The translations under genes and the position numbers were made by a program. The notes below the pieces were generated by a model. The model was not told the origin of the DNA and searched no databases. It saw only the letters and a program-made list of their open reading frames with translations. 64,000 bases of DNA from Bacteroidota bacterium (GTDB lineage: Bacteria; Bacteroidota; Ignavibacteria; UBA10030; UBA8401): the NCBI GenBank assembly GCA_035506275.1, contig DATJPT010000006.1, forward strand, positions 284,635-348,634. Direction: 5' to 3'. Shown in pieces: positions 1,681 through 47,285 of the stretch (positions are counted from its first letter, which is position 1; every line of letters begins with the position of its first letter).

Positions 1681-1711
1681 TCTTTGATTTTACAGATGAC
1701 GCTGATGCAGC

Positions 1712-1734
1712 GCAGATTGCAGATTGCGCAGATT
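1712..1734. repeat. (GCAGATT)x3 heptamer tandem repeat, left flank of the GxxExxY gene
   Basis: gcagattgcagattgcgcagattt read directly from the sequence. Its inverted counterpart lies at 2163-2213. Confidence 0.6.
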
Positions 1735-1766: not shown

Positions 1767-2213
1767 ATGAAAGAATATTCGGAAGAGAACTATCCAAAAA
1801 AGGAAATAACCGAAAAGATCATAAAGGCTGCGTTCACCGTACATAATAAATTAGGCTTCGGGTTTGTAGAAAAAGTTTATGAAAATGCGTTGGCAAAGGA
1901 ATTGCGGAACGCGGGGCTTATGGCAGAACAGCAGAAGAAGATGAAAGTTGTCTATGGGGGTGAGCCTGTCGGAGATTTCATCGTCGATATTTTAGTAAGC
2001 AACAGCGTTATCGTTGAGTTGAAAGCGGTCCACATGCTGGAGAGTACATTCGAAGACAAGCTGCTTCACTATTTAAAAGTCTCAAACCTTCCGGCCGGAT
2101 TGCTTCTCAATTTCGGAACCCCCAGCGTTCAAATCAGACGAAAAGTATATTCTGTCCGCAGAGACCAATCTGCGAAATCTGGAATCAGCGTAAAATCTGA
2201 GGAATCTGAGTAA
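1767..2213 (+). CDS. GxxExxY family protein (PD-(D/E)XK nuclease superfamily)
   Basis: 148 aa; VEKVYENALAKELRNAGL ... VDILVSNSVIVELKA matches the GxxExxY family (pfam13366). The gene is a low-GC island flanked by inverted short repeats. Confidence 0.7.
   Translation: MKEYSEENYPKKEITEKIIKAAFTVHNKLGFGFVEKVYENALAKELRNAGLMAEQQKKMKVVYGGEPVGDFIVDILVSNSVIVELKAVHMLESTFEDKLLHYLKVSNLPAGLLLNFGTPSVQIRRKVYSVRRDQSAKSGISVKSEESE
2163..2213. repeat. AATCTGN octamer tandem repeats, reverse complement of GCAGATT, ending in the CTGAGTAATCAC motif
   Basis: caatctgcgaaatctggaatcagcgtaaaatctgaggaatctgagtaatcac. It overlaps the 3' end of the GxxExxY CDS and abuts the sixA ATG. Related AATCTGCG..CATCTGCGTAATCACTT elements occur at 18262-18320, 23195-23262 and 27940-28005. 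Confidence 0.6.
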
Positions 2214-2217
2214 TCAC

Positions 2218-12826: not shown

Positions 12827-12948
12827 GCCGCGGGTTAGTATATTGTGTGCGGCCCGGTAAAGCATCCGGTTGCCGTCACATTCGTAACACCCATCCTCAC
12901 AGTGACATTCAGTTGAAAACGTACTCCGCTCTGCGAATTGCTACGCTG

Positions 12949-15606
12949 ATGATTCCCGCCGCCGCGCTGATGCTTGGCGGCTGCAACATCGGAGAGGATA
13001 ATGAAGATCCTGTCGTGCGATCGCAGGAGCTCCGCTCGAAAGCCGCAGAAGAGGCGGGAGCGCATGACTTCCTTCATGCGGAAGAACATCTCACGCAGCT
13101 CTTCCCGATCGACCAGCAGATGCAGCAGTGGGAACGGCTCGCCGAGGACCGCGCCGCCGCCGCCAAAGTTGAAACCTCACTCGGCCACTTTTCCGCCGCC
13201 ACGGAAAATTACAGCGAGGCGTGGAAGTACTACCGCGAGTCCGGAAACCATGCGGCCGAGGTCCGGATGATGAACGCCGTCGGAATTCTATCCGTGGAAC
13301 TGGGGGACTTCGAACAGGGGATCGGCATGCTCGCCAACGCGCTCGACGTCAGCAAGCTCGCATCCAACAACGAGCCAGACCCCGAAACGAGCATGAACCT
13401 CGGCAACGCGTATTGCTGGTCGGGGCAATACGAAAACGCGCTCGCTCAGTTCACTTCCGCGCTGGCGGTGTTCAATAAACGGCGGTCTTCCCCTTCGGTC
13501 GTCCGGGCTCTTTCGGGTGTCGGCTATGCCGATGCCAGGCTTGGAAAAAGGGACGAGGCCCTGACCGCGTTTGCAACGGTCGAGAACATTGTCAGCACCG
13601 TCCCGAACGTGATCGTGAAGGGGGAATTCAATTACGATAAAGGAAGGGGGCTCGAAGCGCTCGGAGAATGGAGCGATGCGGCGCAATCGTTCCACGACGG
13701 CATCGGCATCCTTGAAGATCTCCCGAACAGTCAAAAGAACGAACAGACGAACGACCTGCTGATTCTCCTCTACACGGCCCTCGGCAAGGTCTACGCCCAC
13801 AATTTTGCCTACCAGCTCGCAAAGCAAAGCTTCATCGAAGGGTACTCGCTCGCCAAAGACGCCGGCAGAAAAATCGCCATCGGCTATTTATTGACCGCGA
13901 TCGCCGACTGCGAACGGAAAATCACAGCGGTGAACCCGGACCAGCAGGCCACGATCGCCGCCGGAACATACTACGAGCAGGCGATGAACCTCTTTTCGCG
14001 GAACGGCAACATCTCCGGCGAAGCGTACGCCAACTACAAGCTGGGAATGATGAAAGAGGAAGAGGGGAACACGGACGGCGCTCTCGCATTCTACCGGCGC
14101 GCGTTCGAACTGCGCAGCGGACAGTCCGGCGAGTTCAACAACTGGGGGGAGGACGAAGAATTTTTCGGGATGCGGCGTGGGGAGGCGGCTGAAGGGATCT
14201 CCTTCTCCGATGAGACGTACTGGTACGAGCCGCTGGTCATTCTGCTTGCACGCCAGGGGCGCGCGGAAGAGGCGCTCGACATCTTCGAACAGGGAAAGAC
14301 AGGATCTCTCGCGGCCCGGCTCCGTTCATTCCCCTTCCAATACCGGGACAAGAGCACGCAGCAGAGCGTCGAGGCGGTCCGTCGTCAAATGCATGCGCTC
14401 AGCGTGAAAGAGGCAGAACTCGCTTATCAGAAGGGGTTGAATGCGAATCAACGCGACGGTGCTGGGATCGCATCGCTTGCCACAGACATCGCATCCGCAC
14501 GCACAGCGCTGTCGGCCAATGCATCGGCGCTTGCACAAAAGGATCCCCAGCTCGAAATTCTCTTCCGCACGCCGGCATTCCAGGAAACGGAGTTCCGTTC
14601 AGCGCTGACCTACGGCACGGTCGTGCTCGATTATCTCATCGCCGAGGACCGCATCGTTATTTTTGTGGTTTCCTTCGACGGCATGGGACGGCAGATGCCG
14701 GTCAGCGTCGTGGAAGTGCCGATCTACAAGGATATCGTGCTTGAGAAGGTCCGCCAGTACGACCTGATGCTCAACGAGCACATCCACAGCATCGGGACGG
14801 GATATTTTCAGACGACCGACATCGAACGGCTGTCGCAGGAGCTGTACAATTATTTTCTGCGCCCCGTGGAGCGGCTGTTCGTGCAGCGCGTGGTCATCAT
14901 ACCGCCGCGCGAGATGGAGAATATTCCGTTCCATGCGTTCACCCGCTCGACCAACGAAGGGGTGAAGCCGATGGTGGAGATCGCCGATGTCTCTTACCTG
15001 CCGTACCTCGCCGCGGCGAAAAGCATTCCGCCTCCCCCCCGGTTCATCAACTCCGTCGTCGCCATGGGAAATTCGCGGGGGAACAACTGGCCGCTCGACT
15101 TTGAATTGCGCGACATCCGGAGTTTCTTCCGCGAGACGGCCGTCTATGTCTCGCAGAACGCCGGCGAGAAACAGCTGTTCGGATCGTCGGGGGACGTGCT
15201 TCAGCTTTCGACCGACTTCGCGACCGACACGCTTTTCCCCGGCCGCTCATCGTTCGTCCTGGCGAGCGGAAGCATCACGGACCCGGATGCCGAAATTCCG
15301 GTTGCGAATTTCCTGAGCCTGCATCCGTACCCCGTCGTCTATCTTTCCGACGAGCAGCCCGGCGTCTCGGGACTGACGCCGCTCTATGCCGCGGTGCTGA
15401 TGATGAACGGCTCGTCCAACATCATCCTCACCATGCGGCCGTCCGACGTGAAGCCGAATAAATTCTTCAGCGAAAAATTTTATACCGCGCTGGCCCGGGG
15501 GAGCAGCGTGAACGACGCCTACCGCTCCGCCGTCATCGCCATGAGCAAGTCTGCCGCGTTCAGCGCCCCCTACCAGTGGTCGCAGTACTTTAAGTTTGGG
15601 AAGTGA
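12949..15606 (+). CDS. TPR-repeat lipoprotein with C-terminal CHAT (caspase-like) domain, catalytic dyad apparently substituted
   Basis: Lipobox LMLGGC at the ATG 12949. N-terminal TPR repeats (LGNAYCWSGQYENALAQF...). The C-terminus aligns by eye to the CHAT domain (IPFHAF; PVVYLSDEQPGVSG where LVVLSACETG is expected; FYTALARGSSVNDAYRSAV; PYQWSQYFKFG). The track ORF starts upstream at 12847. Confidence 0.55.
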   Translation: MIPAAALMLGGCNIGEDNEDPVVRSQELRSKAAEEAGAHDFLHAEEHLTQLFPIDQQMQQWERLAEDRAAAAKVETSLGHFSAATENYSEAWKYYRESGNHAAEVRMMNAVGILSVELGDFEQGIGMLANALDVSKLASNNEPDPETSMNLGNAYCWSGQYENALAQFTSALAVFNKRRSSPSVVRALSGVGYADARLGKRDEALTAFATVENIVSTVPNVIVKGEFNYDKGRGLEALGEWSDAAQSFHDGIGILEDLPNSQKNEQTNDLLILLYTALGKVYAHNFAYQLAKQSFIEGYSLAKDAGRKIAIGYLLTAIADCERKITAVNPDQQATIAAGTYYEQAMNLFSRNGNISGEAYANYKLGMMKEEEGNTDGALAFYRRAFELRSGQSGEFNNWGEDEEFFGMRRGEAAEGISFSDETYWYEPLVILLARQGRAEEALDIFEQGKTGSLAARLRSFPFQYRDKSTQQSVEAVRRQMHALSVKEAELAYQKGLNANQRDGAGIASLATDIASARTALSANASALAQKDPQLEILFRTPAFQETEFRSALTYGTVVLDYLIAEDRIVIFVVSFDGMGRQMPVSVVEVPIYKDIVLEKVRQYDLMLNEHIHSIGTGYFQTTDIERLSQELYNYFLRPVERLFVQRVVIIPPREMENIPFHAFTRSTNEGVKPMVEIADVSYLPYLAAAKSIPPPPRFINSVVAMGNSRGNNWPLDFELRDIRSFFRETAVYVSQNAGEKQLFGSSGDVLQLSTDFATDTLFPGRSSFVLASGSITDPDAEIPVANFLSLHPYPVVYLSDEQPGVSGLTPLYAAVLMMNGSSNIILTMRPSDVKPNKFFSEKFYTALARGSSVNDAYRSAVIAMSKSAAFSAPYQWSQYFKFGK

Positions 15607-15617
15607 GATGTCAGAAA

Positions 15618-15660
15618 GCAGAAGACAGGAGACAGTAAGCAGTTAGCAGTGAGCAGGCAG
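15618..15660. repeat. heptamer tandem repeat (RCAGNRA)x6
   Basis: gcagaag acaggag acagtaa gcagtta gcagtga gcaggca, immediately after the CHAT gene stop. Confidence 0.6.
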
Positions 15661-15661: not shown

Positions 15662-16095
15662 TACTATCGCTGTCCATGTCATTCTGAGGAGGAGCGTTCT
15701 TTGCGACGACGAAGAATCTTTCTTGCCGTATAGATTCCTCGCTGCGCTCGGAATGACATGTAGTCGTTGGTGGCTCCGATATTCTCAAGGTTACTGGGCC
15801 TCTGTCATTCTGAGGAGGAGCGCTCTTTGCGACGACGAAGAATCTTTCTTACGGCGAAAGAGTGAAGGAACCGAGGTCAGTATAGATTCCTCGCTACGCT
15901 CGGAATGACATGTAGTTGTTGCTGGCTCCAATATTCTCAAGGATGCTGAGTCTCTGTCATTCTGAGGAGGAGCGCTCTTTGCGACGACGAAGAATCTTTC
16001 TTACGGCGAAAGAGTGAAGGAACCGAATTCAGTATAGATTCCTCGCTGCGCTCGGAATGACATGTAGTTGTTGGTGGCTCCAATATTCTCAGGGA
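15662..16095 (-). repeat. family-A tandem hairpin array (about 3.3 units, reverse orientation)
   Basis: Units of about 128 bp: GTCATTCTGAGGAGGAGCG...GAAGAATCTTTCTT...TATAGATTCCTCGCTGCGCTCGGAATGAC plus a linker. It is the reverse complement of the arrays at 22076-23200, 26440-27000 and 27355-27935. Confidence 0.7.
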
Positions 16096-17904: not shown

Positions 17905-17970
17905 TGAAGATGGGTTTGAAATGATGATGTTCCTGTGATGAAAGTAGGCAAAAAATTCAGGAAGTGCAAG

Positions 17971-18088
17971 GAGAGGAGACAGGAGTCAGTAGACAGTAAG
18001 CAGTAAGCAGTGAGCAGTAAGCAGTGAGCAGTAAGCAGTGAGCAGTGAGCAGTAGGAAGTAAACAGTGAGCAGTAAGCAGTAAGGAGT
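17971..18088. repeat. long heptamer tandem repeat (GCAGTRA)x~15, upstream of the ECF sigma gene
   Basis: ...cagtaagcagtgagcagtaagcagtgagcagtaagcagtgagcagtgagcagtaggaagtaaacagtgagcagtaagcagtaagg... read directly from the sequence. Confidence 0.85.
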
Positions 18089-18401
18089 CGGGTACTCCCC
18101 CAGTCCATGTCATCCTGAGCGAGTCCGTTTTTCAGGACGAGTCGAAGGATCCACGACACTGCACCGCCGTCACGGCAGAATCTGCCGTTGCAGAGAGCGA
18201 CGGGGCACCACGCCGTATGGACGTACATGAGGAAGACGGAGATAACCAATGCTTATGCACTGCCTCATCTGCGAAATCAGTCATCTGCGCAAAATCTGCG
18301 TCATCTGCGTAATCACTTCCGCCTTGAGATTCCATCCTTTTTTTTGTACTATGGACAGTCACATTGTTTAGCAGTTTTTCATCACAACAACGACCACCGT
18401 T

Positions 18402-22020: not shown

Positions 22021-22068
22021 GCAACAGGTAGCAGCTAACAGTTAACAGTTAGCAGTTAGCAGTTTATA
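22021..22068. repeat. heptamer tandem repeat (AACAGTT/AGCAGTT)x6
   Basis: aacaggt agcagct aacagtt aacagtt agcagtt agcagtt, directly upstream of the DUF2085 gene. Confidence 0.7.
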
Positions 22069-22075: not shown

Positions 22076-23200
22076 GTGAAAAGGGGATGCTTCGGAAGGA
22101 GCATCCGTCGCCGCGCTCCCCAGAATGACAGAGACTCAGCTTCCTTGAGAATATCGGAGTCACCAACAACTACATGTCATTCCGAGCGAAGCGAGGAATC
22201 TATACGGGAAGAAAGATTCTTCTTCGTCGCAAAGAACGCTCCTCCTCAGAATGACAGAGGCCCAGCTTCCTTGAGAATATTGGAGCCATCAACAACTACA
22301 TGTCATTCCGAGCGCAGCGAGGAATCTATACTGACCTCGGTCCCTTCACTCTATCGCCGCAAGAAAGATTCTTCGTCGTCGCAAAGAACGCTCCTCCTCA
22401 GAATGACAAGGACCCGGTTTCCTTGAGAATATTGGAGCCTCCAACAACAACATGTCATTCCGAGCGAAGCGAGGAATCTATACTGACCTCGGTTCCTTCA
22501 CTGTATCGCCGTAAGAAAGATTCTTCGTCGTCGCAAAAAAACGCTCCTCCTCAGAATGACATAGACTCAGCCTCCTTGAGAATATTGGAGCCACCAACAA
22601 CTACATGTCATTCCGAGCGAAGCGAGGAATCTATACTGACCTCGGTTCCTTCACTCTTTCGCCGTAAGAAAGATTCTTCGTCGTCGCAAAGAACGCTCCA
22701 CCTCAGAATGACACAGACCCAGCTTCCTTGGGAATATTGGAGCCACCAACAACTGCATGTCATTCCGAGCGCAGCGAGGAATCTATACTGACCTCGGTTC
22801 CTTCACTCTATCGCCGTAAGAAAGATTCTTCGTCGTCGCAAAGAACGCTCCTCCTCAGAATGACAGGGATCCAGCTTCCTTGAGAATATTGAAGCGACTA
22901 ACAACCATATGTCATTCCGAGCGTAGCGAGGAATCTATACTGACTTCGGTTCCTTCACTCTTTCGTCGTGCGAAAGATTCTTCGTCGTCGCAAAAAACGC
23001 TCCTCCTCAGAATGACAGAGGCCCAGCTTCCTTGAGAATATTGGAGCCACCAACAACTACATGTCATTCCGAGCGCAGCGAGGAATCTATGCTGTCGTCG
23101 TTTCCTTCACTCTTTCGTCGTGCGAAAGATTCTTCGTCGTCGCAAAAAACGCTCCTCCTCAGAATGACAGAGACGGAACTAGATTCCGCTACTTAATTAT
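22076..23200 (+). repeat. family-A tandem hairpin array (about 8.5 units of ~128 bp)
   Basis: It begins with the hairpin GGATGCTTCGGAAGGAGCATCC. Units run CAACAACTACATGTCATTCCGAGCG(A/C)AGCGAGGAATCTATAC[...]AAGAAAGATTCTTCGTCGTCGCAAAGAACGCTCCTCCTCAGAATGACAGAG-linker. Each unit is a long imperfect hairpin, and units differ by indels in the loop. The ORF-track 'proteins' containing CHSERSEESI are translations of these repeats. Confidence 0.8.
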
Positions 23201-23256
23201 CCAGACCCCAATCTGCGTAATCTGCAATCAGCGCAAAATCAGCGCCATCTGCGTAA

Positions 23257-26061
23257 TCACTTTAGCAGAAGCATCTTTCTCGTCTCTATAAACCTTCCAG
23301 ACCTGAGGGTGTAAAAATATGCGCCGCCGGCAAAGCTGGCTCCGTTGAACGCCGCACGGTTCAACACTCCCGCCTCAACGCTGCCGTTCACGAGAGTCGC
23401 AACCTCTTCCCCAAGCGTGTTGTACACTTTCAGCGTCGCGATGCCCGACGTCGGCACCGCAAATTCGATGCTGGTTTCCGGGTTGAACGGGTTCGGGTAA
23501 TTCTGTCCGAGCAGTATCGTATTCGGCGCCAACGTCATCGTTGCTTCCACTTCATCGCTGTACTCAAAGTTTCCGTTGCGGTCAATCTGCTTCAGACGGT
23601 AATTGTAGCTCCCAACCACCGCGGATGCATCCTTGAAAGAATAACGATGCACGCTGCTGCTCGTTCCATACCCGTGAACAAACCCTATTGTTTCCCAACT
23701 GTTCATTGTTGATTGTTCATTGTTCATTGTACTCCGCTCCACCTCAAACCCGTAATTCTCCGTCTCCGTCGCCGTCGTCCAGCGAAGCTCGACCCCATCC
23801 TCCGCCGCACGAGCCGTGAACGAACTCAGCTCGACGGGAAGATTGGTCGCGACAAAACTTGACTCGGCAGCGTCGTTCGCTGAACCCTCTGTTCCAGCCC
23901 CTCCTGCCGATGTTTTTGAATCGAGCCCGAAGTCGCTTACCGACCCGATATTCACGAATTGAACCACGTGGCCCGAAGCCGGAGCCGTCGTTGAATTTGC
24001 GGTCGGCGCCGCAAGCGAGGCGATGCTCCCCGGTTTACTGCCATGACTGAGGGAATGAATATGGCCGCCGCCGGAAGTCAGGATCTCAAGCGCATCGGCG
24101 GTGCCGGAAATATCGAAGCCGCTTGCACCGCCGGTAAAGTACGTCGCGTTGGTGTCGCTGACGACGAGTTTCTTATCCGAAATATCAAAGTCCTGCGCTT
24201 GCGCGTTTCCCTTTCCAAGAAGAACAATGAACGTTCCTTTTGGTACTGATGACCAGAGTGCTGCATTCGAAAACACGACCGGCGTCTGCGCATTGCCGGC
24301 GGAGCTGTAGTCGCGAAGCTGCATCCCGCGCATATCCAGGTTGTTCTGGATGACCAGAAGCTCGACCCATTCCCCGCTTTGCGCCGATGCATTAAAATAC
24401 TCGTTCACTACGACGGTTGGCGACGACGAAGCGGCTCCGGTGGTGTAGGTGACCTGGTCTTTCGACGAAGGGAAATTGTCCGTCTTATAGTTGCGCTGAC
24501 AACCGCTTCCGTTGTAGGGATAAATCCTGAACGAGTAGCTGGTCAGACTCAGGAGGCCGGTACACTGCAGCGAATCTCCGCTGCCGTACGGGACATTGAC
24601 AACCGCCGAACCGTCGCCGAGGTTGGTATCGTTCGAATACGTTACACCGTCCACAGGGTCGCTGAACGCGTTCGTGGTATTCGCGAGGATAAGATAGCCG
24701 GAGGGAACGGTACCTCCGGCCGAGTCGATCCACCGGATCGTGATTGAGGAGTTCGTGATCGTCGGTGTCGTAAGGTTGAACCCTCCCGGATACTTTGATG
24801 GCTCGGCGGCAAGCGTTGCCGACCCTGTCGTTGCACTGCAGGAAGGGACCGTCCCGTCGATTTTGTAGTTGATCTGCGACGACGAGCCGTTATAAGAATA
24901 CATATGCACATAGTATGTCGTTCCGCACGAGAGGCCGGTGAACTGGTGCGACGTCCCCCCGCTGTTGGCCACATTCACTACCGCACGGTTGTCGGTCAGG
25001 TCCGTGTCGTCGGCATAGACCGAACCGTCTTCGGGCGTGAAATAATCGTCCGATGCGTAGAGCTCGATCAGGTACCCGGAGGGCTGCTGACTCCCTGCCG
25101 CGGCGTTCGTCCAGCTGACCGTCAGACTGGACGAAGTGACGTTCCCTATCGCAAGGTTCGTCACATGGTTGGAAGGTTCAACGGCATACGTCGGAGTCAG
25201 TTTCGAGAGGTCGTTGAAGTTGATATAGTTCGCCCACTCGGGATGATCGACAAACGGATTGCGGTTGTTCTGGATCGATTGGATATAGTTGTTCCGCGAT
25301 ACTTCCCACGCGTCGGGAGGGTCGTCTTTATTCCACTGCAAAAGAAGGTTCACATCCTGTGCTGCTTCGCTCAGCGAATCGAGTATAACATTGTTGAGAT
25401 GATTGAATGTCCAGTCGTAGCCATTCACGCCGTTATAGCAAACGGCCATGTAGAAAAGAGCGCGTGCGAAATCCCCCTTGTGCGACTGACGAGGCTCGAA
25501 GACGGTATGCCCGCTCGCATCCGTTCCGACCTTGCACGCCAAAAAAGTGTATGTTGGAGAAACAACGACTCCCTCAGGATGATTGCTCCTCGGGTCGTTT
25601 GCGTGTACCTGATTCACGGGAAAAAGGTGATGCTGGTCGGAATACTCAGGCAAGCTTGTAAAATTGGATGCGTGCGCGCTCGGCATCCAACTCTGGCACC
25701 AGGAGTGCTCGCGGCTGAATCCCGAGTCATTGTTCACTCCGGCGTTTCCCCACCATTTAAAGGGCGGCGTGTAAACGTAGTTAAGCCCGGAATACACACA
25801 CGTCACAACTTTCTGCCCGTTCGTCGTATCGCGCGAGGCGAAGTTGGCAATGTTCGTCTCATCGTAATTGTCGTAGGTGATGCGGGTGTGAGGATTGATC
25901 AGGTTCTGGAGGTCAGTGACAAAGGTCGCGCTTGATGTGGAAATACCGTCGAAGTAAGTTCCGGGCTGCGCCCAGAGGGATAATGATTGAAGAACGATCA
26001 GAGAGACAAGAACGCCGAGGCTCTTCCTCGATGTTCTCAAAGATTTCAAACCAGCGCCCAT
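23257..26061 (-). CDS. secreted T9SS cargo protein: endonuclease I family nuclease + FN3 repeats + lamin-tail domain + T9SS C-terminal sorting domain
   Basis: 934 aa; signal peptide. The N-terminal domain shows the Endonuclease_1 pattern (HLFPVNQ...SHKGDFARALFYMAVCY...NNRNPFVDHP). An LTD-like segment reads VVVNEYFNASAQSGEWVELLVIQNNLDMRGMQL. The CTD reads GQNYPNPFNPETSIEF...LKVYNTLGEEV...KMLLLK. Confidence 0.7.
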   Translation of the reverse strand: MGAGLKSLRTSRKSLGVLVSLIVLQSLSLWAQPGTYFDGISTSSATFVTDLQNLINPHTRITYDNYDETNIANFASRDTTNGQKVVTCVYSGLNYVYTPPFKWWGNAGVNNDSGFSREHSWCQSWMPSAHASNFTSLPEYSDQHHLFPVNQVHANDPRSNHPEGVVVSPTYTFLACKVGTDASGHTVFEPRQSHKGDFARALFYMAVCYNGVNGYDWTFNHLNNVILDSLSEAAQDVNLLLQWNKDDPPDAWEVSRNNYIQSIQNNRNPFVDHPEWANYINFNDLSKLTPTYAVEPSNHVTNLAIGNVTSSSLTVSWTNAAAGSQQPSGYLIELYASDDYFTPEDGSVYADDTDLTDNRAVVNVANSGGTSHQFTGLSCGTTYYVHMYSYNGSSSQINYKIDGTVPSCSATTGSATLAAEPSKYPGGFNLTTPTITNSSITIRWIDSAGGTVPSGYLILANTTNAFSDPVDGVTYSNDTNLGDGSAVVNVPYGSGDSLQCTGLLSLTSYSFRIYPYNGSGCQRNYKTDNFPSSKDQVTYTTGAASSSPTVVVNEYFNASAQSGEWVELLVIQNNLDMRGMQLRDYSSAGNAQTPVVFSNAALWSSVPKGTFIVLLGKGNAQAQDFDISDKKLVVSDTNATYFTGGASGFDISGTADALEILTSGGGHIHSLSHGSKPGSIASLAAPTANSTTAPASGHVVQFVNIGSVSDFGLDSKTSAGGAGTEGSANDAAESSFVATNLPVELSSFTARAAEDGVELRWTTATETENYGFEVERSTMNNEQSTMNSWETIGFVHGYGTSSSVHRYSFKDASAVVGSYNYRLKQIDRNGNFEYSDEVEATMTLAPNTILLGQNYPNPFNPETSIEFAVPTSGIATLKVYNTLGEEVATLVNGSVEAGVLNRAAFNGASFAGGAYFYTLRSGRFIETRKMLLLK

Positions 26062-26439
26062 TCAGCAACAGCACCATTCTCCCCCCCGCGATGAATTAAT
26101 AATGTGAATTATGAATTACGAATCTCTTCGTACGTAAGATCCCATCGTTCGGCGCCGGCCCATTCCGACCATTCCACAATGTACCCGGCGTAGCGTTGAT
26201 TTAATGTACATACGGCAACCCGGCGGGACGATGACCAACAGCACGCATAATGAAAAAATAAACAAACGGCGGAAGAAATACCAGCGGCAACCCCGTTTTA
26301 TTCCCCGTTACCCCCTCCGCCCGAAGGTTCGAGGGGATGGCTTTGCAAGACCTCCGCGGAGGATCCATGACGCTGCATTTCCGTTACACTGGAATGTACC
26401 ATCAGAAACGCCTGCGGTCACCAATTCGTAGTGTCATGG

Positions 26440-27000
26440 ATTCTCCCAAAGGGATGCTTCGGAAGGAGCATCCGTCGCTGCGCTCCTCAGAATGACACAG
26501 ACTCAGCATCCTTGAGAATATTGAAGCCACCAACAACTATATGTCATTCCGAGCGCAGCGAGGAATCTATGCCGTTAGAAAGATTCTTCGTCGTCGCAAA
26601 GAACAGTCCTCCTCAGAATGACAGAGATTCAGCTTCCTTGAGAATATTGAAACCACCAACGACTACATGTCATTCCGAGCGAAGCGAGGAATCTATGCTG
26701 TCGTCGGTTCCTTCACTCTTTCGCCGTAAGAAAGATTCTTCGTCGTCGCATAGAACGCTCCTCCTCAGAATGACAAGGACCCGGTTTCCTTGAGAATATT
26801 GGAGCCACCAACAACTACATGTCATTCCGAGCGTAGCGAGGAATCTATGCTGTCGTCGGTTCCTTCACTTTTTCACCGTGTGAAAGATTCTTCGTCGTCG
26901 CAAAAAACGCTCCTCCTCGGAATGACATAGACTCAGTAACCTTAAGAATATCTGAGCCACCAACAACTACATGTCATTCCGAGCGTAGCGAGGAATCTAT
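26440..27000 (+). repeat. family-A tandem hairpin array (about 4.5 units)
   Basis: Same unit as 22076-23200. It starts with the GGATGCTTCGGAAGGAGCATCC hairpin and ends abutting the GIY-YIG gene. Confidence 0.8.
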
Positions 27001-27001: not shown

Positions 27002-27277
27002 TTAAAATCTGACCTCTTCAAAATTAGGGTTTATCGATGAGATGAGATCAATTTTTTTCTGCCTCCCCCACCCCTTAATTTGCTTTTCTCTCGAAATTGC
27101 GTCGCGCACGTCAGAGTACTCTTCAAAATACACTAACTTCGAAATTTTATAGCGAGATGTGAATCCGGGATTCGAATGCATGCAGTGCTCGGCTACCCGG
27201 CGTTCTAAGTTATTTGTCAACCCTGTGTACAACGTCATCTTTCTATTTGTCATTATATAGATGTAGTATTTGCGCAT
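27002..27277 (-). CDS. GIY-YIG nuclease family protein (UPF0213-type, standalone)
   Basis: 91 aa; YIYIMTNRKMTLYTGLTNNLERRVAEHC is the GIY-YIG core. The gene is a low-GC insert sandwiched between two family-A arrays. Confidence 0.75.
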   Translation of the reverse strand: MRKYYIYIMTNRKMTLYTGLTNNLERRVAEHCMHSNPGFTSRYKISKLVYFEEYSDVRDAISREKQIKGWGRQKKIDLISSINPNFEEVRF

Positions 27278-27354: not shown

Positions 27355-27935
27355 CGAGCCAGCGAGGGGTCCCTGCGGTAAGAAAGATTCTTCGTCGTCG
27401 CAAAAAACGCTCCTCCTCAGAATGACACAGACTCAGCTTCCTTGAGAATATTAAATCCACCAACAACCACATGTCATTCCGATCGCAGCGAGGAATCTAC
27501 ACAGGAAGAAGAACGCTCTTCCTCAGAATGACATAGACTCAGCTTCCATGAGAATATTGGAACCACCAACAACTGCATGTCATTCCGAGCGCAGCGAGGA
27601 ATCTATACCGCAAGAAAGATTCTTCGTCGTCGCAAAGAACACTCCTCCTCAGAATGACAGAGACCCAGCTTCTTTGAGAATATTGGAGCCACCAACAACT
27701 ACATGTCATTCCGAGCGAAGCGAGGAATCTATGCGGCAAGAAAGATTCTTCGTCGTCGCAAAGAACGCTCCTCCTCAGAATGACAGAGACTCAGCTTCTT
27801 TGAGAATATCGGAGCCACCAACAACTACATGTCATTCCGAGCGCAGCGAGGAATCTATGGCGTTAGAAAGATTCTTCGTCGTCGCAAAGAACGCTCCTCC
27901 TCAGAATGAAAGAGACGGAACTAGACTCCGCTACT
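27355..27935 (+). repeat. family-A tandem hairpin array (about 4.5 units)
   Basis: Same unit as above. The terminal ~100 bp (27908-28005), including the AATCTGCG..CATCTGCGTAATCAC element, are near-identical to 23163-23262. Confidence 0.8.
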
Positions 27936-27998
27936 TAATTATCCAGACCCCAATCTGCGCAATCTGCAATCAGCGCAAAATCAGCGCCATCTGCGTAA

Positions 27999-30900
27999 TC
28001 ACTTCAGCAGAAGCATCTTCTTCACGTCCCGTTTCCCTCCCGACTGCAGTACATAAAAGTATATCCCCGAGCTCAAGCATCCCGCATTCATCCGAACACG
28101 ATATCGCAGGTTCGCGTCCGCATCTCCATCGAACAGCGACATCACTTCCTCACCGAGCGTGTTGTACACTTTCAGCGTCGCGATGCCCGCCGTCGGCACC
28201 GCAAATTCGATGCTGGTTTCCGGGTTGAACGGGTTCGGGTAATTCTGTCCGAGCAGCATCGTATTCGGCGCCAACGTTATCGTTGCTTCCACTTCATCGC
28301 TGTACTCGAAGTTTCCGTTGCGGTCGATCTGCTTCAGACGGTAATTGTAGCTCCCAACCACCGCGGATACATCCTTGAAAGAATAACGATGTATGCTGCT
28401 GCTCGTCCCCTGTCCCGCCACAAACCCAAGCTTCACCCAACCGTTCATTGTTGATTGTTCATTGTTCATTGTACTCCGCTCCACCTCAAACCCGTAATTC
28501 TCCGTCTCCGTCGCCGTCGTCCAGCGAAGCTCGACCCCATCCTCCGCTGTGCGAGCCGTGAACGAACTCAGCTCGACGGGAAGCGGGACATTCCCCCACG
28601 AGGTTGCGACACGAATGCCGTCAATTCTCAGCGTCGGTGCCGTCCCCGCTCCTCCTTGCCGCAGCGCAATGGCTCCGATGCTCTGGGCGTCGTTCTCCCC
28701 GGCGGGAGCGCTTGCCGAGGGGGTATGTTCCGGCGCGTTCAACGGCGGATCGACAAAAAGATCGGCCGTGTCGTCGGTGTCAGATTTATTTTTGAACGTG
28801 TATTTCAAAACGAGAAGATACGTCGTGTTGTACGAATAGACAGCGCGCGTATAGTTCGGCTCCGTGCTGCTCTTGCTTACGCCGAAGGCAAGCTTGCCGG
28901 CGCTGTCTTTCACAAAGACGCGCCCCGTGAACGTTCCGAGGGAACTGGTGCTGAAATGGAAGAAGAAATCTCCGCCGCTTTGGGCTGCGCTCACATTGAC
29001 AAGCATCGACGCGTACACCGACCCGCTGGCGATCGTGAAAAACGTGACATGGTCGTCTTCCCCGCTGGACGACAGCTGCGCGGCATTGCCGATGCCGGAC
29101 GAATGATATCCCGCGTAGGTCAATCCGGGAGAAACGACGCAGATCGGGTTCGTCCCTTCCGCGCCGTGAGCGCTCCAGCCGTCGCCGGTGATCGGCCCGG
29201 AAACGGCGTACGGAAAATTCTCGACAACGATCGCGTTCGTCGTCTCGAATACGCCGGAGGTCGGGTTGATCAAACCTCCGGTGTTCGAGGCGGTCAGGCT
29301 GACGCCTAACTCCCCTTTCGTGAATCTGATATCATCCCATGAAACTGACCCCGACGACAGAACTTTCGTTAACCCGGATGCCGAACCCGGCGCGTCCGTC
29401 CCGGACGCAAGAAGTATTGTGACATTCCCGTGAGCTTCCGTGTCTTTATTGTTGTTCGCGTCGCGCGCTTCAAGCGAAACGCTGATGTTCGTGTTCAGGT
29501 TCGCGAACTGGACCGGAGCAGCGATAAACACGAGCTGCGTCGCTATGACTCCGATCGCATTTTTCGCGGAGTCCGAGACCGCGGCCGGGAACAAACTCAT
29601 CTGAGAGCTTGTCACGTCGTTCTGCGTGATGGTGTTGGCCGGTGTCAGCTTGAACTGGAAGACCTGTCCGTCGTGGAGTCCCGACGTCTTCAGCGAGATC
29701 CTGAGCGAGAGTGTTTTTGTCCCCTTGCTTGGCGCGGTCGCGGTAAAATTACCGAACACGAGCGAAGCCGCTCCGATCGTCCCGCTTGCGAGATGCGTCG
29801 ATCCGTCGAACAGGTCGGCCGCAAGAATTGCGCTCGACCAATCGGCGACCTTGTTGGCCGGGCCTTGCGTGAATGTCAGCCCTGTGACAATGGTCGGCTT
29901 CCCGTCGCCGTCCGACAATGCCGCTCCCCCGTCCCGGATCTTGACCTGCCACACCTGGGTCCCGGTCGTCGATGTGAGCGGCGAAGGATGATTTGAGATG
30001 GAAGAGATCGCAGCCGTTTCTGAACCCGCGATAGCGACGATGTCGCTCAGCGATGCGGCGGCAGTTGCTCCGGTTGTCTTGCTTCCGGTCAGCGGGGCCG
30101 CAGTCAGATAATTTGTGCCGTATCCTTTTCCGTTGAAGGCGAAGACCTCGTAACCGTACGTGGTTGATGCGGTCAATCCTTCTTCCGTGAATGATGTTCC
30201 GCTGCCGGCATATTCCACAACGCCGTCTCCGATGGTTTGACCGGCAATATAGGAATTGCCGTCGGCGGGAATCCCCGTCGGCAATGCGCTGGTGCGGCGG
30301 AGAACGAGGTAGCTTTCCGCGGTTGCGGACGGGGTGAACGATACCTGCATCGACGTCGAGCCGACGTTCGAAAAAACGAGCGCGGTCGGCTGCGACTTCG
30401 GCTCGGACTCGGGACCTGCGGTGATCGTGATGTCGTCGATGCTGATCTTCGGACGGCTCCCCGTCGTTCCGCCGGTGCCGTTATAACAATAGAACCGGAT
30501 TCTCGCCGCCGAGCAGTTCTTAAGATTTTGAGGAAGCGGAATCCCGGAGAGAGTCCCGAACGACAACGCGCCGTTGACGAGATTCAGCACCGCGGCCGCG
30601 GTCAGTTCGGTGAAGGCGGCGCCGTCCCCGCTCGTATAAACGCGGAGCGATGCGCAGCGCGGGCTGGCGCCGACGGTGCCGTTGGTGCTGTCCCCCCATC
30701 GAAAGCTGAGCATCCCCGGCGCAACGCCGGTGAAGTCCACAAAAAGATCGATCGCGGCCGAAGCGGAATTATCCGCCGTGCCGGTGGCGAGGAGAAGAAT
30801 ATTTCCGGTCCCCCGCTGGACGCCGGCGGAGGTACCGGTGGAAAATTTTTGGGTCGGGACGGTGATCCTGATGCCGTCCGGGATCGTGCCGCGCGAATTC

Positions 30901-31099: not shown

Positions 31100-31160
31100 C
31101 AGTTAACAGTTAGCAGCTATCAGTTATCAGCTAACAATCAACAATGAACAATTAACAAGC
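31100..31160. repeat. heptamer tandem repeat (CAGTTAA-like)x8 in the upstream region of the 1027-aa gene
   Basis: cagttaa cagttag cagctat cagttat cagctaa caatcaa caatgaa caattaa. It is followed by the perfect palindrome AGGTCAGACATTCTTGTCTGACCT at 31167-31190. Confidence 0.7.
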
Positions 31161-31315
31161 GTGCGTAGGTCAGACATTCTTGTCTGACCTAACAATTAAC
31201 AAAAATGGGGAGATGGTTTTGGGGAGAAAAAAGATGGGAGAGTAACTGGACCAATATTGGAATTGGTGGGATAAGATGCAAGTGGATTTGGGTACTTGGC
31301 TGCTTTGAGAAGTCA

Positions 31316-31925
31316 ACCCTTCGACGCGCTCCCCCGACTTCGTCGGGGTCGCTTGCTCAGGGTGAACAAGCATTTATTATAATTAAAGAATCTGCTCATC
31401 CTGAGCGAGCCTCGCGAAGCGAGGCGAGCCGAAGGACATCCTGAGCGAGCCTCGCATAGCGAGGCGAGACGAAGGACATCCTGAGCGAGTGGCGCGGCTT
31501 TATCGTGCCACGAGACGAATGACAAGTTGCGCCCTTCGACGCGCTCCCCCGACTTCGTCGGGATCGCTTGCTCCCCGAAGGGGTCCCTTAGGGGACAGGG
31601 TGAACAAGCATTTATTATAATTAAAAAATCTGCTCATCCTGAGCGAGCCTCGCGAAGCGAGGCGAGACGAAGGACATCCTGAGCGAGTGCTGCAGCTTTA
31701 TCGCGGCACGAGACGAAGGACATCCTGAGCGAGTGCTGCAGCCTTATCGCGGCACGAGACGAAGGACATCCTGAGCGAGTGGCGCGGCTTTATCGCGGCA
31801 CGAGACGAAGGACATCTTGAGCGAGTGGCGCGGCTTTATCGCGGCACGAGACGAAGGACATCTTGAGCCCTTCGACTCCCCTGTTCCGCTTTCAGCGGAA
31901 CAGGTTCGCTCAGGGTGAACAAGCT
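31316..31925. repeat. family-B tandem repeat array (two ~216-bp super-units containing ~46-bp GACGAAGGACATCCTGAGCGAG-N24 subrepeats; hairpin-rich)
   Basis: Subrepeat gacgaaggacatcctgagcgagtggcgcggctttatcgcggcacga x~8. Embedded hairpins CCTCGC-gaa-GCGAGG, CCCGAC-ttc-GTCGGG and CCTGTTCCGC-tttca-GCGGAACAGG. Confidence 0.75.
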
Positions 31926-33461: not shown

Positions 33462-33618
33462 AAGTGGATCCTTTCTGAGATTGATGAGGTGTGGGTTAAT
33501 AAGAATTACGATTTACGAATTTCAATTTACGATCTTGGGAAAGGAGTTCTTGGTCCTCAGTGTCCGGTGTCTGGTATTGCCTTCCGCCAGTCACTCCTTA
33601 CTCCTTACTGCCTACTGT

Positions 33619-34338
33619 TTAGTCCTGCGTGCCAAGTCTTAACGTCAGCGCCCGTGCTTCTGTGCTCTTCATTCTCACATCTGAATTCTCCCTTCTGTCT
33701 CCCGCTTTCCCCACGATCGCATCGGAGCGGAGGGCGAAGAGGATGGTCGGGATCGTTTTCAACACGAGCGCGAGGTCGAGCGCGAGCGAACGGGTCTGCT
33801 CGTACAACAGATCGAGGCGTACGAGGTTCTCGACTCCTTCTTCCCTGCTGCCGTACAGCTGCCAGAGTCCCGAGAGTCCCGCCGGCGCGGTGACCGCCGC
33901 GCGCATATCATAGAACGAAGGGGATTCGCGTTTCATCGTTTCGAGGTCGGCGAGCGCCAGCGGGCGCGGGCCGATGAAGCTCATGTCCCCGACCAGAATA
34001 TTCCACAACTGCGGAAGCTCGTCGAGTCCGGTCAGTCGGAACCATCTGCAGATACGGGGAACGTCGCCGGCGTATTCGGGCCTGAAGAAGATCTGTGCCG
34101 CGCCGGGAATGTGCGCGCGGGAATCCCGTTCGCGCATCGTCCGGAGTTTATAGATGCGGAACCGCTCCCGTTCGAGCGAGACACCCCGGTCCTGAACATA
34201 GAGGGGGAATGCCCGAGTCTCCCATGCTGCGACGAGGAGGAGCAGAACCATTGCCGGAAAAAGCGCGGCCATGAGCGTCAGCGCGAGAACGACGTCGAAA
34301 ATTCTTTTCCAGAGAAAATAGGATTTGCGCAAGGGCAT
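33619..34338 (-). CDS. sugar transferase (polyprenyl-phosphate glycosyl-1-phosphate transferase, Bac_transf family)
   Basis: 239 aa; KRIFDVVLALTLM TM helix, FRIYKLRTM, and DELPQLWNILVGDMSFIGPRP, the signature of WbaP/WcaJ-type initiating transferases. Confidence 0.85.
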   Translation of the reverse strand: MPLRKSYFLWKRIFDVVLALTLMAALFPAMVLLLLVAAWETRAFPLYVQDRGVSLERERFRIYKLRTMRERDSRAHIPGAAQIFFRPEYAGDVPRICRWFRLTGLDELPQLWNILVGDMSFIGPRPLALADLETMKRESPSFYDMRAAVTAPAGLSGLWQLYGSREEGVENLVRLDLLYEQTRSLALDLALVLKTIPTILFALRSDAIVGKAGDRRENSDVRMKSTEARALTLRLGTQD

Positions 34339-34635
34339 TAGGGAGTATGCCTGAGTATCGAATTGATGACGAACAGAAAATCAGCTGAAGCACATGCGGT
34401 AGTTCGGGGAAAATATCCGCATTGGGGGGACAAAATGCAAGTTAATTTTGTGTTACGAATCAGGATTTTTTTGGAAAAGAACGCACCGCACAGGACCCGA
34501 GGGGATGGTTTCGTCAGCCGCCCGAGTGCAGAGGAACTGCCGTAGGGGCGTCGTGTTTTTGTGGAAGCCGTTCTTTGGAAGTCGCAAAAATTTTTGGAAA
34601 TGCGTTTGCGAAAAGGGGAATGATTATGTATCATG

Positions 34636-34745
34636 GGGCGGTGGAAATGGGGGATGGGGGAAGGATGGAGTGGTGGAAGGGTGGAATGGGGGAAGGGTGG
34701 AATATTGGAAACATGGAATGGTGGAGGGATGGAATCAGGGGGGCG
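34636..34745. repeat. G-rich satellite-like tandem repeat (GGAATGG / GGTGGAAGG units)
   Basis: ggaaatgggggatgggggaaggatggagtggtggaagggtggaatgggggaagggtggaatattggaaacatggaatggtggagggatggaatcagggggg. It lies in the divergent region between the sugar-transferase and TPR genes. Confidence 0.7.
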
Positions 34746-34922
34746 TTTGGAGAACGGCAACTCTTTTAATGGTGGATAGTTATCTGTGGACAAGGTTTTT
34801 TGGGGGGATGCAAATTTGCCCCAGTCATCCTCGGAAGAGGGGGATATGCGGCCATTTCCCGTCCCTTTCATTCCGACGATGACATCGCTATAGAACCAAT
34901 TCACGTTAAGGAGACAATCGTT

Positions 34923-35699: not shown

Positions 35700-35779
35700 C
35701 AGTGATCAGGGAACAGCGATCAGTGATCAAGGTTTTCGGGGGACGGGCGTTCTGACAAAGACGGCAACAATTTTTCCCA

Positions 35780-35965
35780 TTGAGAATATTGGAGCCATCA
35801 ACAACCACATGTCATTCCGAGCGCAGCGAGGAATCTATACGGTAAGAAAGATTCTTCGTCGTCGCAAAGAGCGCTCCTCCTCAGAATGACAGAGACTCAG
35901 CTTCCTTGAGAATATCGGAGCCACCATCAACCACATGTCACCTCGAGAACAACGAAGGGTCTATC
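35780..35965 (+). repeat. family-A hairpin repeat, about 1.5 units
   Basis: ttgagaatattggagccatcaacaaccacatgtcattccgagcgcagcgaggaatctatacggtaagaaagattcttcgtcgtcgcaaagagcgctcctcctcagaatgacagag... Confidence 0.65.
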
Positions 35966-36025: not shown

Positions 36026-36108
36026 GCCGAGATGGTGGAATTGGCAGACACACTAGCCTTAGGAGCTAGCGCCGTAAGGCATTGGGGGTTCGAATCCCCC
36101 TCTCGGCA
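36026..36108 (+). tRNA. tRNA-Leu (anticodon TAG), long variable arm
   Basis: Acceptor GCCGAGA/TCTCGGC, anticodon stem CTAGC/GCTAG with loop CTTAGGA, long extra arm, T-loop GGTTCGAATCC; 83 nt. Confidence 0.85.
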
Positions 36109-36387: not shown

Positions 36388-36445
36388 GCTGACGGTAAAA
36401 TAGTAAATAGTGAAAAGTAAAGGGTGAAGAGTGAATAGTGAAGAG
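36388..36445. repeat. heptamer tandem repeat (NAGTRAA)x6 immediately upstream of the GLUG-protein gene
   Basis: tagtaaa tagtgaa aagtaaa gggtgaa gagtgaa tagtgaa. Confidence 0.65.
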
Positions 36446-46372: not shown

Positions 46373-46741
46373 CGATTTACAGAAAAACGGAGCGTTGCCA
46401 GTATGCGACGAACGGATTGCTTATAGTGCTTACGAAATCTTGGAGCTTATCTTTGAAAAGGCATATTCAGAGGAGGGGTGTCACTGGGAATGAAAGTTAG
46501 GGGTTACTGCGAGAATGTCAAGCCCGCCACGGCTGTTGTGCGAAGCAGCAGTTGGGCCGGCTCGCTCCGGGGCGGTGAAGTTTGAGAATTTCCCCTCGCG
46601 CTCCGGTTATTTGTCATTCGGCTGAAAATATCGAGAACGAGATCCATTCCGTTCGCGATCGGAGATTGAGAACGAGTGAATCCGTCCCCTAAAAGCCGCG
46701 ATTGCGGGCCTGGAACGGTCCCCCTTGCGCTGGGTGTCTCA

Positions 46742-47200: not shown

Positions 47201-47227
47201 CTCTCGAAACGCTTATATGTAAATTTC
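47197..47227 (+). promoter_or_regulatory. putative Bacteroidetes-type promoter (-33 TTGACTC, 20-bp spacer, -7 TAAATTTC)
   Basis: ccTTGACTCtcgaaacgcttatatgTAAATTTC. The same geometry is seen at 52227-52257 and 53508-53538. Confidence 0.4.
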
Positions 47228-47285
47228 TGCTGATGTAAAAAAATTTGCTTGAAAATTTCTTCACGCCGAAACACTCAGGCCGCGC

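Follow-up and report, generated by a model that had tools for sequence, protein, structure and literature searches.

The 64,000-nt stretch analysed here (hereafter the window; positions 284,635 to 348,634 of contig DATJPT010000006.1, assembly GCA_035506275.1, from a Bacteroidota bacterium of the GTDB lineage Ignavibacteria, UBA10030, UBA8401) raises the question of why so many of its intergenic spacers carry tandem repeats with a unit of seven nucleotides. A sequence-only reading of the window offered two hypotheses, namely that these arrays are contingency loci, in which slipped-strand changes in unit number alter promoter spacing, or that they are the footprint of a templated repeat-synthesis activity. 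The analysis identified them as intergenic heptanucleotide arrays of the type known as STRR (for short tandemly repeated repetitive) sequences and TAACTGA repeats, in a newly added lineage of uncultured Bacteroidota. They represent a well-supported case of a repeat class already on record and not a new mechanism. As the best explanation of the observations as a whole, to which we give a probability of roughly 0.55, we propose that the arrays may be generated by slippage and filtered through the transcript or translation of the neighbouring gene.

Arrays were detected using Tandem Repeats Finder (TRF) and a period scan scoring s[i]=s[i+p] at one fixed score threshold, with 20 dinucleotide-preserving shuffles of the window as the null of the scan. 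The scan returned 11 strict tracts of period 7 covering 403 nt, against a shuffle mean of 0.05, together with two tracts at period 6, one at period 12, five at period 14 (multiples of 7) and none at periods 2–5, 8–11, 13 and 15. Period 7 was thus privileged over 6 and 8 (11 tracts versus 2 and 0), a comparison that the sequence-only reading had suggested. TRF called period-7 repeats at 15633–56, 17977–18088, 22023–64, 23700–30, 26105–23, 28443–72, 31100–57, 33506–33, 33593–609, 36399–442 and 58878–902, and both methods bear out the statement that heptamer repeats crowd the intergenic DNA. Non-coding DNA makes up 19.6% of the window and holds nine of the 11 strict tracts (binomial p ~2e-5). The intergenic autocorrelation was barely raised at lag 7 (0.2605, where lags 6 and 8 gave 0.2560 and 0.2548), because the arrays constitute only ~4% of the 12.6 kb of spacer DNA.

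Seven period-7 loci were clear (15612–15656, 17974–18088, 22025–22064, 31100–31158, 33593–33617, 36398–36442 and 58878–58902) and three were weaker yet genuine (26105–26123, 33503–33533 and 35700–35735). The total came to ~12–14 heptamer loci in 64 kb, below the 15 or more that had been claimed. Three of the loci first listed proved not to be regular heptamer arrays: 2163–2213 has a period of 8–9, 34636–34745 a period of 8/16/32, and 1712–1734 is interrupted by 2 nt. Two arrays lying inside reading frames (23700–23730 and 28443–28472) were absent from that list. The arrays are 19–118 nt long, with 71–94% matches in TRF. The array at 17974–18088 (82% matches), hereafter the main array, was present in five independent metagenome assemblies, a recurrence showing that the arrays are not assembly artefacts. 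Their density had been called unusual for a bacterial chromosome; this was overstated, as over-represented heptamers have been documented for a number of phyla (PMC4679880; PMC4692102).

Six arrays are placed upstream of start codons, four after stop codons and two in frame within cargo genes of the type IX secretion system (T9SS). The upstream arrays lie 16–69 nt from the start codons of genes for an extracytoplasmic function (ECF) sigma factor, a DUF2085 protein and four T9SS cargo proteins, and the post-stop arrays begin 0–15 nt after the stops of TPR-CHAT, sugar-transferase, TPR and cytidylyltransferase genes. The earlier impression that nearly all arrays stand 5′ of genes for surface or regulatory proteins therefore held for about half of them. 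The main array, on the plus strand, comprises 17 units of (G/A)CAGT(A/G)(A/G), not the ~15 first estimated. It occupies part of the spacer that separates two divergent genes, the ECF sigma gene (start 17904, minus strand) and purA (start 18402), where it precedes the sigma start by 69 nt and adjoins a conserved motif, CAGGAAGTGCAAGGA.

Most arrays have a common CAGT core, which on the opposite strand reads T(T/C/A)ACTG(C/T), TAACTGA included. Units of this family are GCAGTAA, GCAGTGA and GCAGTAG in the main array, CAGTTAG and CAGTTAA at 22025 and 31100, CAGTGAT at 35700, and CAATGAA at 31133 and in both copies inside reading frames. A second family, GAATTA(G/T/C), occurs at 26105, 33503 and 58878. 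At least three unit families are found side by side in the window, and the interiors of the arrays are mosaics of variants.

Contigs of related strains were obtained from five other assemblies by exact-protein look-ups; a look-up with the cytidylyltransferase gave no match. An exact scan of metagenome contigs with the flanks of the main array, for further alleles, gave 0 matches, and a second metagenome scan with the conserved motif on the purA side returned five orthologous loci. In L001, a contig 99.5% identical to the window, the main array has the same 17 units, and in L003, L004 and L005, which are ~98% identical, it has 20 units (142 versus 121 nt) as well as unit substitutions. The 6.6-kb alignment with L004 placed five substitutions and insertions of 14 and 7 nt within the 118 nt of the main array, a density of 5.9 events per 100 nt compared to 0.6–1.9 in genes and other spacers, and all indels of this alignment fall in repeat arrays. 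Furthermore, the array at 58878 is shorter by exactly one unit (7 nt) in strain contig L393. The comparison of unit counts across strains, also suggested by the sequence-only reading, thus yielded differences in heptamer register at two arrays. The order of variants inside the arrays is common to the strains. The long arrays are thus hot spots of indels and substitutions between strains, and the 7-, 14- and 21-nt indels within arrays bear the signature of slipped-strand mispairing with a step of one heptamer. No change between strains was seen in the short arrays at 22025, 33503 and 33593, and that at 35700 differed in L129 by two substitutions and no indel; such invariance of short arrays is expected if the rate of slippage increases with array length. 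These strain differences do not show rapid switching.

The edges of the sigma–purA spacer are conserved across species, with CAGGAAGTGCAAGGA on the sigma side and CGCCTTGAGATTCC-N4-TTTTTTTT-GTACTATG on the purA side, where a sigma-70 scan matched TTGAGA-17-TACTAT. Two promoter-like motifs of the form CCTTG-N11-T6-8-G, at 17955–17969 and 18318–18355, face outward from the spacer; they are kept in at least four species (L006, L007 and L133–L136 compared), and the DNA between them is replaced. In the species of the window this DNA holds (GCAGTRA)17–20. The spacer of L006 and L007, from a closed 4.2-Mb genome with a 90% identical purA, has ~6 ACGTNNN units in palindromic arrangement, that of L133 and L134 a remnant of 3–4 such units, and that of L135 and L136 ~7 AAGTTCT units, 55 nt and then ~5 inverted AGAACTT units. 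A single position distinguishes the L007 unit A(N)AACGT from the L135 unit A(N)AACTT, the outcome expected from the concerted evolution of one persisting array. The array of the sigma–purA spacer may thus have persisted over the long term while its unit drifted by concerted evolution. The other array-bearing spacers of the window have no arrays in L006, and L008 has none in 21 kb. That the unit is replaced while period and place persist, and that density varies, argues against both a sequence-specific binder and a templated enzyme.

The species-representative genomes of GTDB were scanned for three exact GCAGTRA units in tandem, which gave at least 120 stretches, where ~2 would be expected by chance; the figures below refer to the matches listed. 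These included Acidobacteriota (many Pyrinomonadaceae), Cyanobacteria, Chloroflexota, Gemmatimonadota, Verrucomicrobiota, Desulfobacterota, Campylobacterota and Planctomycetota, the Bacteroidota Algivirga, Hymenobacter, Chitinophagales and Polaribacter, and a few Streptomyces, Pseudomonas and Psychrobacter. The 865 kb of listed stretches contained 276 period-7 tracts, against 0–32 at other periods, and long stop-free stretches held 35% of these tracts compared to 86% of the bases. Adjacent inverted pairs accounted for 82 of the 276 tracts (~30%). In IMG/VR, GCAGTRA in three tandem copies was found in 67 stretches, and some phage contigs had arrays in nearly every spacer. Control units searched in the same way in IMG/VR gave 107 stretches for TAACTGA, 65 for GCTGARA, 14 for CGGATRA and 2 for GACGTRA; the idea that GCAGTRA is uniquely favoured was rejected, as all tested units were far above chance and their usage was uneven. 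Three predicted viral contigs with 58–64% GC (L138, L164 and L174; IMG/VR 3300033405_000065, 3300039307_000285 and 3300033402_000062) carried one or two arrays in almost all spacers, usually as (GCAGTGA)n, a gap and (TNACTGN)n.

The statistics of orientation showed that the arrays are not orientation-neutral and stand flush against coding edges. In the window, 11 of 12 CAG-core arrays, GCAGAT-type 9-mers included, read (G)CAG outward from the nearest coding edge (binomial p ~0.003), with the array at 36398 as the sole CAG-type exception. Upstream of starts, the gene sense shows (T)AACTG or YACTG in the arrays at 31100 (17 nt), 22025 (40 nt) and 17974 (69 nt). Polarity elsewhere was assessed with a crude open reading frame (ORF) caller using a composite codon score, which reproduced the curated gene map of the window; simple G1–G2 codon-position scores failed to separate sense from antisense ORFs, whereas the composite score succeeded. 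At the 120 listed GTDB loci, arrays within 30 nt of a stop were in CAGT sense in 52 cases versus 3, and those near starts were in ACTG sense in 14 versus 7 (Fisher p = 8e-8). The bias near stops was 23 versus 3 without array-supplied stop codons, that of unpaired arrays 60 versus 7, and that per locus 65 versus 6 (p = 1e-13). Viral GCAGTRA loci gave 132 versus 6 near stops and 82 versus 12 near starts, and outside the window the polarity was followed by ~90% of arrays, in a set of over 100 other genomes and phage contigs. Furthermore, arrays of unrelated units in the listed genomes had more G than C on the outward strand in 38 cases versus 9. Because every spacer reads (CAGT)n and then (ACTG)n, miscalled gene strands cannot create this polarity. 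The rule that CAG reads outward was derived in the present analysis; such a general rule is not formulated in PMC4679880, and it was not found stated in the accessible literature.

The outward strand, (G)CAG(T)..., is G-rich and C-poor, and C makes up 36% and G 12% of the unstructured strand that reads inward in the main array. With CAG outward, the RNA entering a gene would be C-rich, G-poor and free of start codons, (U)YACUGC or UAACUG, the RNA leaving it would be GCAGURA, and where both arms are present they could pair into a hairpin. The predicted RNA fold of the main array was no better than that of shuffles on either strand (z = −0.5 and −1.3), and the short arrays at 22025 and 31100, owing to the self-complementarity of TTAAC/GCTAGC, gave z = −2.3 to −2.9. 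The window contains no two heptamer arrays placed next to each other in inverted orientation; such pairing is common in the class without being universal. An Rfam scan of the window returned two tRNAs only and no family overlapping the arrays.

The T-R-R position of the main array holds TAA, TGA and TAG only. A three-frame stop barrier, in which a stop-bearing heptamer would place stops in all frames every 21 nt, was rejected on two counts. TGG-type units were not depleted among 180 CAGT-phased arrays of other genomes (GG observed 50 times, 46.6 expected), and post-stop TAACTGA arrays were in the stop-free TCAGTTA sense in 46 cases versus 2.

STRR sequences are cyanobacterial heptanucleotide repeats (Mazel et al., 1990, as cited in PMC4692102; PMC2670836), for which roles in transcript stability or translational coupling have been suggested (PMC2670836). 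The arrays of the window resemble them in their tandem 7-nt units, numerous intergenic loci and several unit families per genome. Two of the three classical STRR units, CCCCAGT and CAACAGT, also have a CAGT core. STRR sequences often form hairpin-capable inverted pairs between genes of heterocystous cyanobacteria, whereas the window arrays are single, occur in an uncultured member of Bacteroidota and consist of units such as GCAGTRA, CAGTTAG and GAATTAG. Direct repeats of TAACTGA were described in marine Beggiatoaceae, cyanobacteria and five Bacteroidetes, in forward orientation upstream of starts and with strain indels in 7-nt steps (MacGregor, 2015, PMC4679880). The arrays at 22025 and 31100 likewise read TAACTGC, TAACTGT or TAACTGA in the sense of the downstream gene, at a distance of a few to tens of nt from its start codon. 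In the TAACTGA system, one reverse array directly after a stop was noted in Flexibacter litoralis, and long arrays are mixed with other heptamers in some Bacteroidetes (PMC4679880); post-stop arrays occur in the window too, where, unlike in that system, they make up a third of the arrays and the dominant unit is GCAGTRA.

The G-rich heptamers of Xanthomonas (GGGAATC) and of Nostoc (GGGGA(C/T)T), described by Rehm et al. (2015, PMC4692102), share with the present arrays an intergenic over-representation specific to heptamers and extensive variation in length and sequence between close relatives at the same gene pairs. They mostly comprise 2–26 units, with many inverted pairs (PMC4692102), and have G-tracts capable of forming G-quadruplexes. 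In contrast, G-tracts of three or more per unit are absent from the units GCAGTRA, CAGTTAG and GAATTAG, and only the non-heptameric array at 34633–34735 is G-rich. Heptamer contingency loci, namely the 7-bp promoter repeats of hmw1A and hmw2A in H. influenzae (PMC8262952; PMC12721329) and neuO of E. coli K1 (PMC13001214), have in common with the window 7-nt units, slippage in unit number and, for some arrays, a place upstream of surface-protein genes. Those loci, however, consist of pure repeats, belong to one or two defined genes and have been shown to switch or grade expression, whereas the present arrays, read from sequence alone, are impure and stand at both ends of many unrelated genes. 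Finally, repetitive extragenic palindromic (REP) sequences and their composites, bacterial interspersed mosaic elements (BIMEs) and REPINs, resemble the arrays in their intergenic gene-boundary sites, their intrinsic polarity and, in other genomes, hairpin-forming inverted pairs. A gene for a REP-associated tyrosine transposase (RAYT) and true REP-like elements coexist with the heptamers in the window; the heptamer arrays differ from them as tandem, non-palindromic 7-mers altered by slippage.

Considering these results, we propose the following scenario. Slipped-strand mispairing in a 7-nt register lengthens and shortens arrays and would also give rise to them, and an effect of the polymerase footprint on slippage has been suggested as the reason why seven is favoured (Mrazek et al., 2007, as cited in PMC4692102). 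Selection through the transcript or translation of the neighbouring gene would then filter their position and orientation, and the arrays may serve as sequence of untranslated regions or gene boundaries that, at most, tunes expression in a graded manner. Several observations weigh against this scenario. The polarity statistics come from a crude ORF caller, loci selected by repeat pattern and possibly redundant viral contigs, and the second unit family (GAATTAN) is inconsistent in polarity in the window. The end of the main array coincides with the start of the promoter-like motif conserved at the sigma gene. The array appears to lie upstream of that motif, and a DNA-level role fits this position better than an RNA-level one. 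Only two alleles of the main array were seen among five assemblies. In addition, the recurrence of GCAGTRA in more than 10 phyla and in phages, together with the strong polarity, could mean a dedicated recognition system.

Such a system would make the arrays a dedicated cis-element, a strand-specific platform for a trans-acting factor that may act as a translational landing pad or a transcriptional insulator, conceivable partners being ribosomal protein S1 or a cold-shock protein, either of which would bind the pyrimidine-rich leader strand, and Rho, which would load on the C-rich, G-poor RNA produced by any polymerase that reads into a gene. Strong polarity with respect to coding edges across phyla, array positions 0–25 nt from start and stop codons, the C-rich, unstructured inward strand of the main array and the persistence of an array in the sigma–purA spacer across four species are all consistent with this possibility, and binding of S1, cold-shock protein or CsrA was proposed for TAACTGA repeats by MacGregor (PMC4679880). 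Close relatives nevertheless differ in unit at one site and at least three families occur per genome, which makes a sequence-specific binder unlikely, and L008 and L006 have few or no arrays in 21 kb, so that these are dispensable. We therefore regard a dedicated cis-element as rather unlikely. It is similarly doubtful that 7–9-nt (G)CAG-core arrays are a cross-phylum, phage-borne and polar gene-boundary punctuation read by the expression machinery through Rho, S1 or another single-strand binder; if they were, the arrays would be maintained for their strand asymmetry and would insulate genes or offer landing pads, with slippage tuning their length.

If the arrays were instead contingency loci, unit number would alter promoter geometry or the structure of the 5′ untranslated region and so switch or grade the ECF sigma factor and T9SS proteins. 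This proposal held in one respect, as unit number does shift by slippage between strains (17 versus 20 units in the main array, one unit fewer at 58878). Six arrays do precede the sigma, DUF2085 and T9SS cargo genes by 16–69 nt, the change from 17 to 20 units amounts to 21 nt or two helical turns, and true heptamer contingency loci are known (PMC8262952; PMC12721329; PMC13001214). The anatomy of the arrays does not support switching, however. The repeats are impure, and the arrays are far longer than a promoter spacer and lie outside any −35/−10-type spacer and, with two exceptions, outside reading frames. The main array does not extend into the promoter-like motif conserved at the sigma gene. 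Four arrays, a third of the set, directly follow the stops of housekeeping-type genes; the short arrays are invariant between strains, the main array shows the two alleles mentioned above, and the two arrays inside ORFs are kept in frame across paralogues and species. Moreover, phase variation of each gene would be implausible in phage contigs with arrays in most spacers. The contingency explanation is thus improbable.

A link to REP/BIME elements, in which the arrays would be a by-product of, or a landing pad for, mobile hairpins and the short ones would form at the edges of REP clusters through RAYT or through repair at its cleavage sites, seems still less probable. Five spacers are laid out as edge, 7/9-mer array, ATGTCATYCYGAG hairpin cluster, array and edge, two arrays end 18–19 nt before a ATGTCATYCYGAG-type hairpin, and a RAYT is encoded in the window. 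The RAYT gene, however, is flanked by another hairpin, GTTCCCAACG-N3-CGTTGGGAAC, and no heptamers were found in its flanks; the arrays at 31100, 33503, 33593 and 36398 have no adjoining REP element, and arrays in other genomes and in phage contigs occur without such elements. A link to the GxxExxY/PDDEXK_3 and GIY-YIG nuclease genes of the window, which was considered and rejected because a homologue was present at only one of the 120 listed array loci, also counts against this explanation.

Templated repeat addition, by a telomerase-like, reverse-transcriptase-based or primase-based activity writing one heptamer many times, would suit a regular period of 7 nt and a single unit, GCAGTRA, that recurs at several loci and across many genomes, but is unsupported and highly improbable, given unrelated units in one genome (CAGTRAG, GAATTAG, CAATGAA), mosaic interiors with a variant order common to strains, different units in one spacer of sister species, strain differences that are small internal 7- or 14-nt indels and not terminal additions, and no reverse transcriptase by Pfam among the ~45 window ORFs scanned. 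Both ON/OFF phase-variation switching and a templated repeat-adding enzyme thus appear to be disfavoured, and slippage followed by filtering through the neighbouring gene remains the reading that we prefer.

The remaining arrays of the window illustrate the range of settings. Among those upstream of starts, the DUF2085 array (22025–22064, plus strand) has six CAGTTAG/CAGTTAA units 40 nt upstream of the start at 21984 (minus strand), reads TAACTGC/TAACTGT in the sense of the gene and is the same in L001 and L004. The array of the T9SS gene encoding a 1027-aa cargo protein (31100–31158, plus strand) has ~8 units grading from CAGTTAA to CAATGAA, 17 nt upstream of the start at 31082 (minus strand), with TAACTG in the gene sense. 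A perfect 9-bp hairpin, GGTCAGACA-AGAA-TGTCTGACC in minus-strand reading, was noted at 31168–31189, and the upstream spacer of the same gene also holds 40- and 46-nt tandem repeats built on CATCCTGAGCGAG...CGAAGGA hairpins (31397–31868). The GLUG/T9SS array (36398–36442, plus strand), with 6.3 units of AGT(G/A)AAN, lies downstream of a tRNA (36026–36108) and 16 nt upstream of the ATG at 36459. Two upstream arrays belong to the second unit family: a weak one of 2.7 TGAATTA units (26105–26123, plus strand), 43 nt upstream of a T9SS endonuclease start (26061, minus strand), and one of four degenerate GAATTAC/GATTTAC units (33503–33533, plus strand), 41 nt upstream of a T9SS start (33461, minus strand) and the same in L129, L130 and L131.

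Following stops, the TPR-CHAT array (15612–15656, plus strand) comprises six units, from CAGAAAG to CAGTGAG, and starts 5 nt past the stop of its gene (12847–15606, plus strand) with CAGT in gene sense. The sugar-transferase array (33593–33617, minus strand), 3.5 units reading CAGTAGG CAGTAAG GAGTAAG GAGT on that strand, lies 1 nt past the stop of its gene (33619–34338, minus strand) and is unchanged in three strain contigs. The TPR array (35700–35735, plus strand), with ~5 degenerate CAGTGAT units, begins at the base right after the TAA stop (gene end 35699), and the cytidylyltransferase array (58878–58902, plus strand), 3.6 GAATTAG units of the second family, lies 15 nt past the stop of its gene (58299–58862).

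Both arrays inside ORFs belong to T9SS cargo genes. The first (23700–23730, minus strand), in the endonuclease gene, has 4.4 CAATGAA units in frame and encodes STMNNEQSTMN directly ahead of the C-terminal sorting domain; the insert is kept in frame in a related species as SMNNEQSTINN. The second (28443–28472, minus strand), in the gene of the 1027-aa protein, is a paralogous copy of it with the same CAATGAA unit, contained in a duplicated 440-nt segment (23402–23841 and 28144–28583, 93% identical, in-frame heptamer insert included) that corresponds to the domain preceding the sorting signal. A heptamer inside a T9SS gene of L393 (8202–8221) was rejected as plain coding sequence for a VISYQLP motif.

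Several arrays with a related core are not regular heptamers. Three GCAGATT units with a 2-nt interruption (1710–1734, plus strand) lie 29 nt past the stop of the adenosine deaminase gene and upstream of a GxxExxY/PDDEXK_3 gene. An array of 8–9-nt units (2167–2215, minus strand; plus strand AATCTGCGN, minus strand of CAGATT type) supplies the codons for the C-terminus of the PDDEXK_3 ORF and stops 2 nt short of the start of a His_Phos_1 gene; it is not heptameric, yet has the GCAG core and the polarity of the heptamer arrays. The GxxExxY/PDDEXK_3 gene (1767–2213, TIGR04256) is thus bracketed by GCAGATT x3 upstream and inverted AATCTGNG 8–9-mers downstream, the latter encoding the final residues SAKSGISVKSEESE of the protein. 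Arrays of 9-nt units, all on the minus strand, occur on the purA side of the main-array spacer, pointing toward the main array (18252–18314, GCAGAT type), over the stop codon of the T9SS endonuclease gene (23224–23259, GCAGAT/GCTGATT type) and over that of the gene of the 1027-aa T9SS protein (27951–28000, GCAGATT type). The G-rich array (34633–34735, plus strand) has a period of 8/16/32 and is hypervariable between strains, accounting for 26 of the 48 differences in 2.5 kb from L129, including a 6-nt deletion and a 7-nt insertion. Its repeats are of GGTGGAAG type with G3–G5 runs (34633–34752) and occupy the divergent spacer of the sugar-transferase and TPR genes.

A scan of ~45 ORFs against Pfam and NCBIfam indicated an ordinary chromosomal region. 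It includes genes for adenosine deaminase, pyruvate kinase, PurA, HrcA–GrpE–DnaJ, PEPCK and squalene/phytoene synthases, and also encodes two-component proteins, one ECF sigma factor and six T9SS-tailed proteins; more distant purA relatives are labelled Ignavibacteriales. An 808-aa ORF (46689–49115, minus strand) had no Pfam match and is probably spurious, and the overlapping plus-strand ORF (47286–48917) is a cNMP-binding/GAF histidine kinase.

The window holds further repeats. The RAYT ORF (60796–61335, minus strand; NCBIfam NF047646, 101 bits against a cutoff of 80) is flanked at 60657–60780 and 61376–61584 by the palindromic GTTCCCAACG-N3-CGTTGGGAAC hairpins and a 72-nt direct repeat, and one further hairpin of this type is found at 38282. 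The gene is missing in L393, where the spacer measures 327 nt compared to 994 nt in the window, and is thus a presence/absence polymorphism. Tandem arrays of a 152-nt unit occur at 15728–16095, 22209–23174, 26571–27000, 27406–27916 and 35774–35940, that at 27406–27916 consisting of 126/106-nt variants of the unit. Every unit contains a pair of ATGTCATYCYGAGS hairpin elements oriented opposite to one another, a BIME/REPIN-like layout, and these elements number 42 copies in the window against 0.22 expected. The block at 22209–23174 is longer in the window than in L001 by 609 nt (four units), and a 91-aa GIY-YIG nuclease gene (27002–27277, minus strand) stands alone between two of the 152-nt repeat arrays.

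Repeats of the STRR class have been known since 1990, have been noted in cyanobacteria, Beggiatoaceae, a few Bacteroidetes and Xanthomonas, and are poorly understood. The window adds an uncultured lineage of Bacteroidota with natural strain pairs and, for one orthologous spacer, four related species, and the comparison at the sigma–purA spacer brings together slippage in a 7-nt register and the long persistence of an array despite a change of its unit. The polarity of the arrays, if upheld by whole-genome analysis, would lead to the testable claim that these arrays are read in a strand-specific manner.

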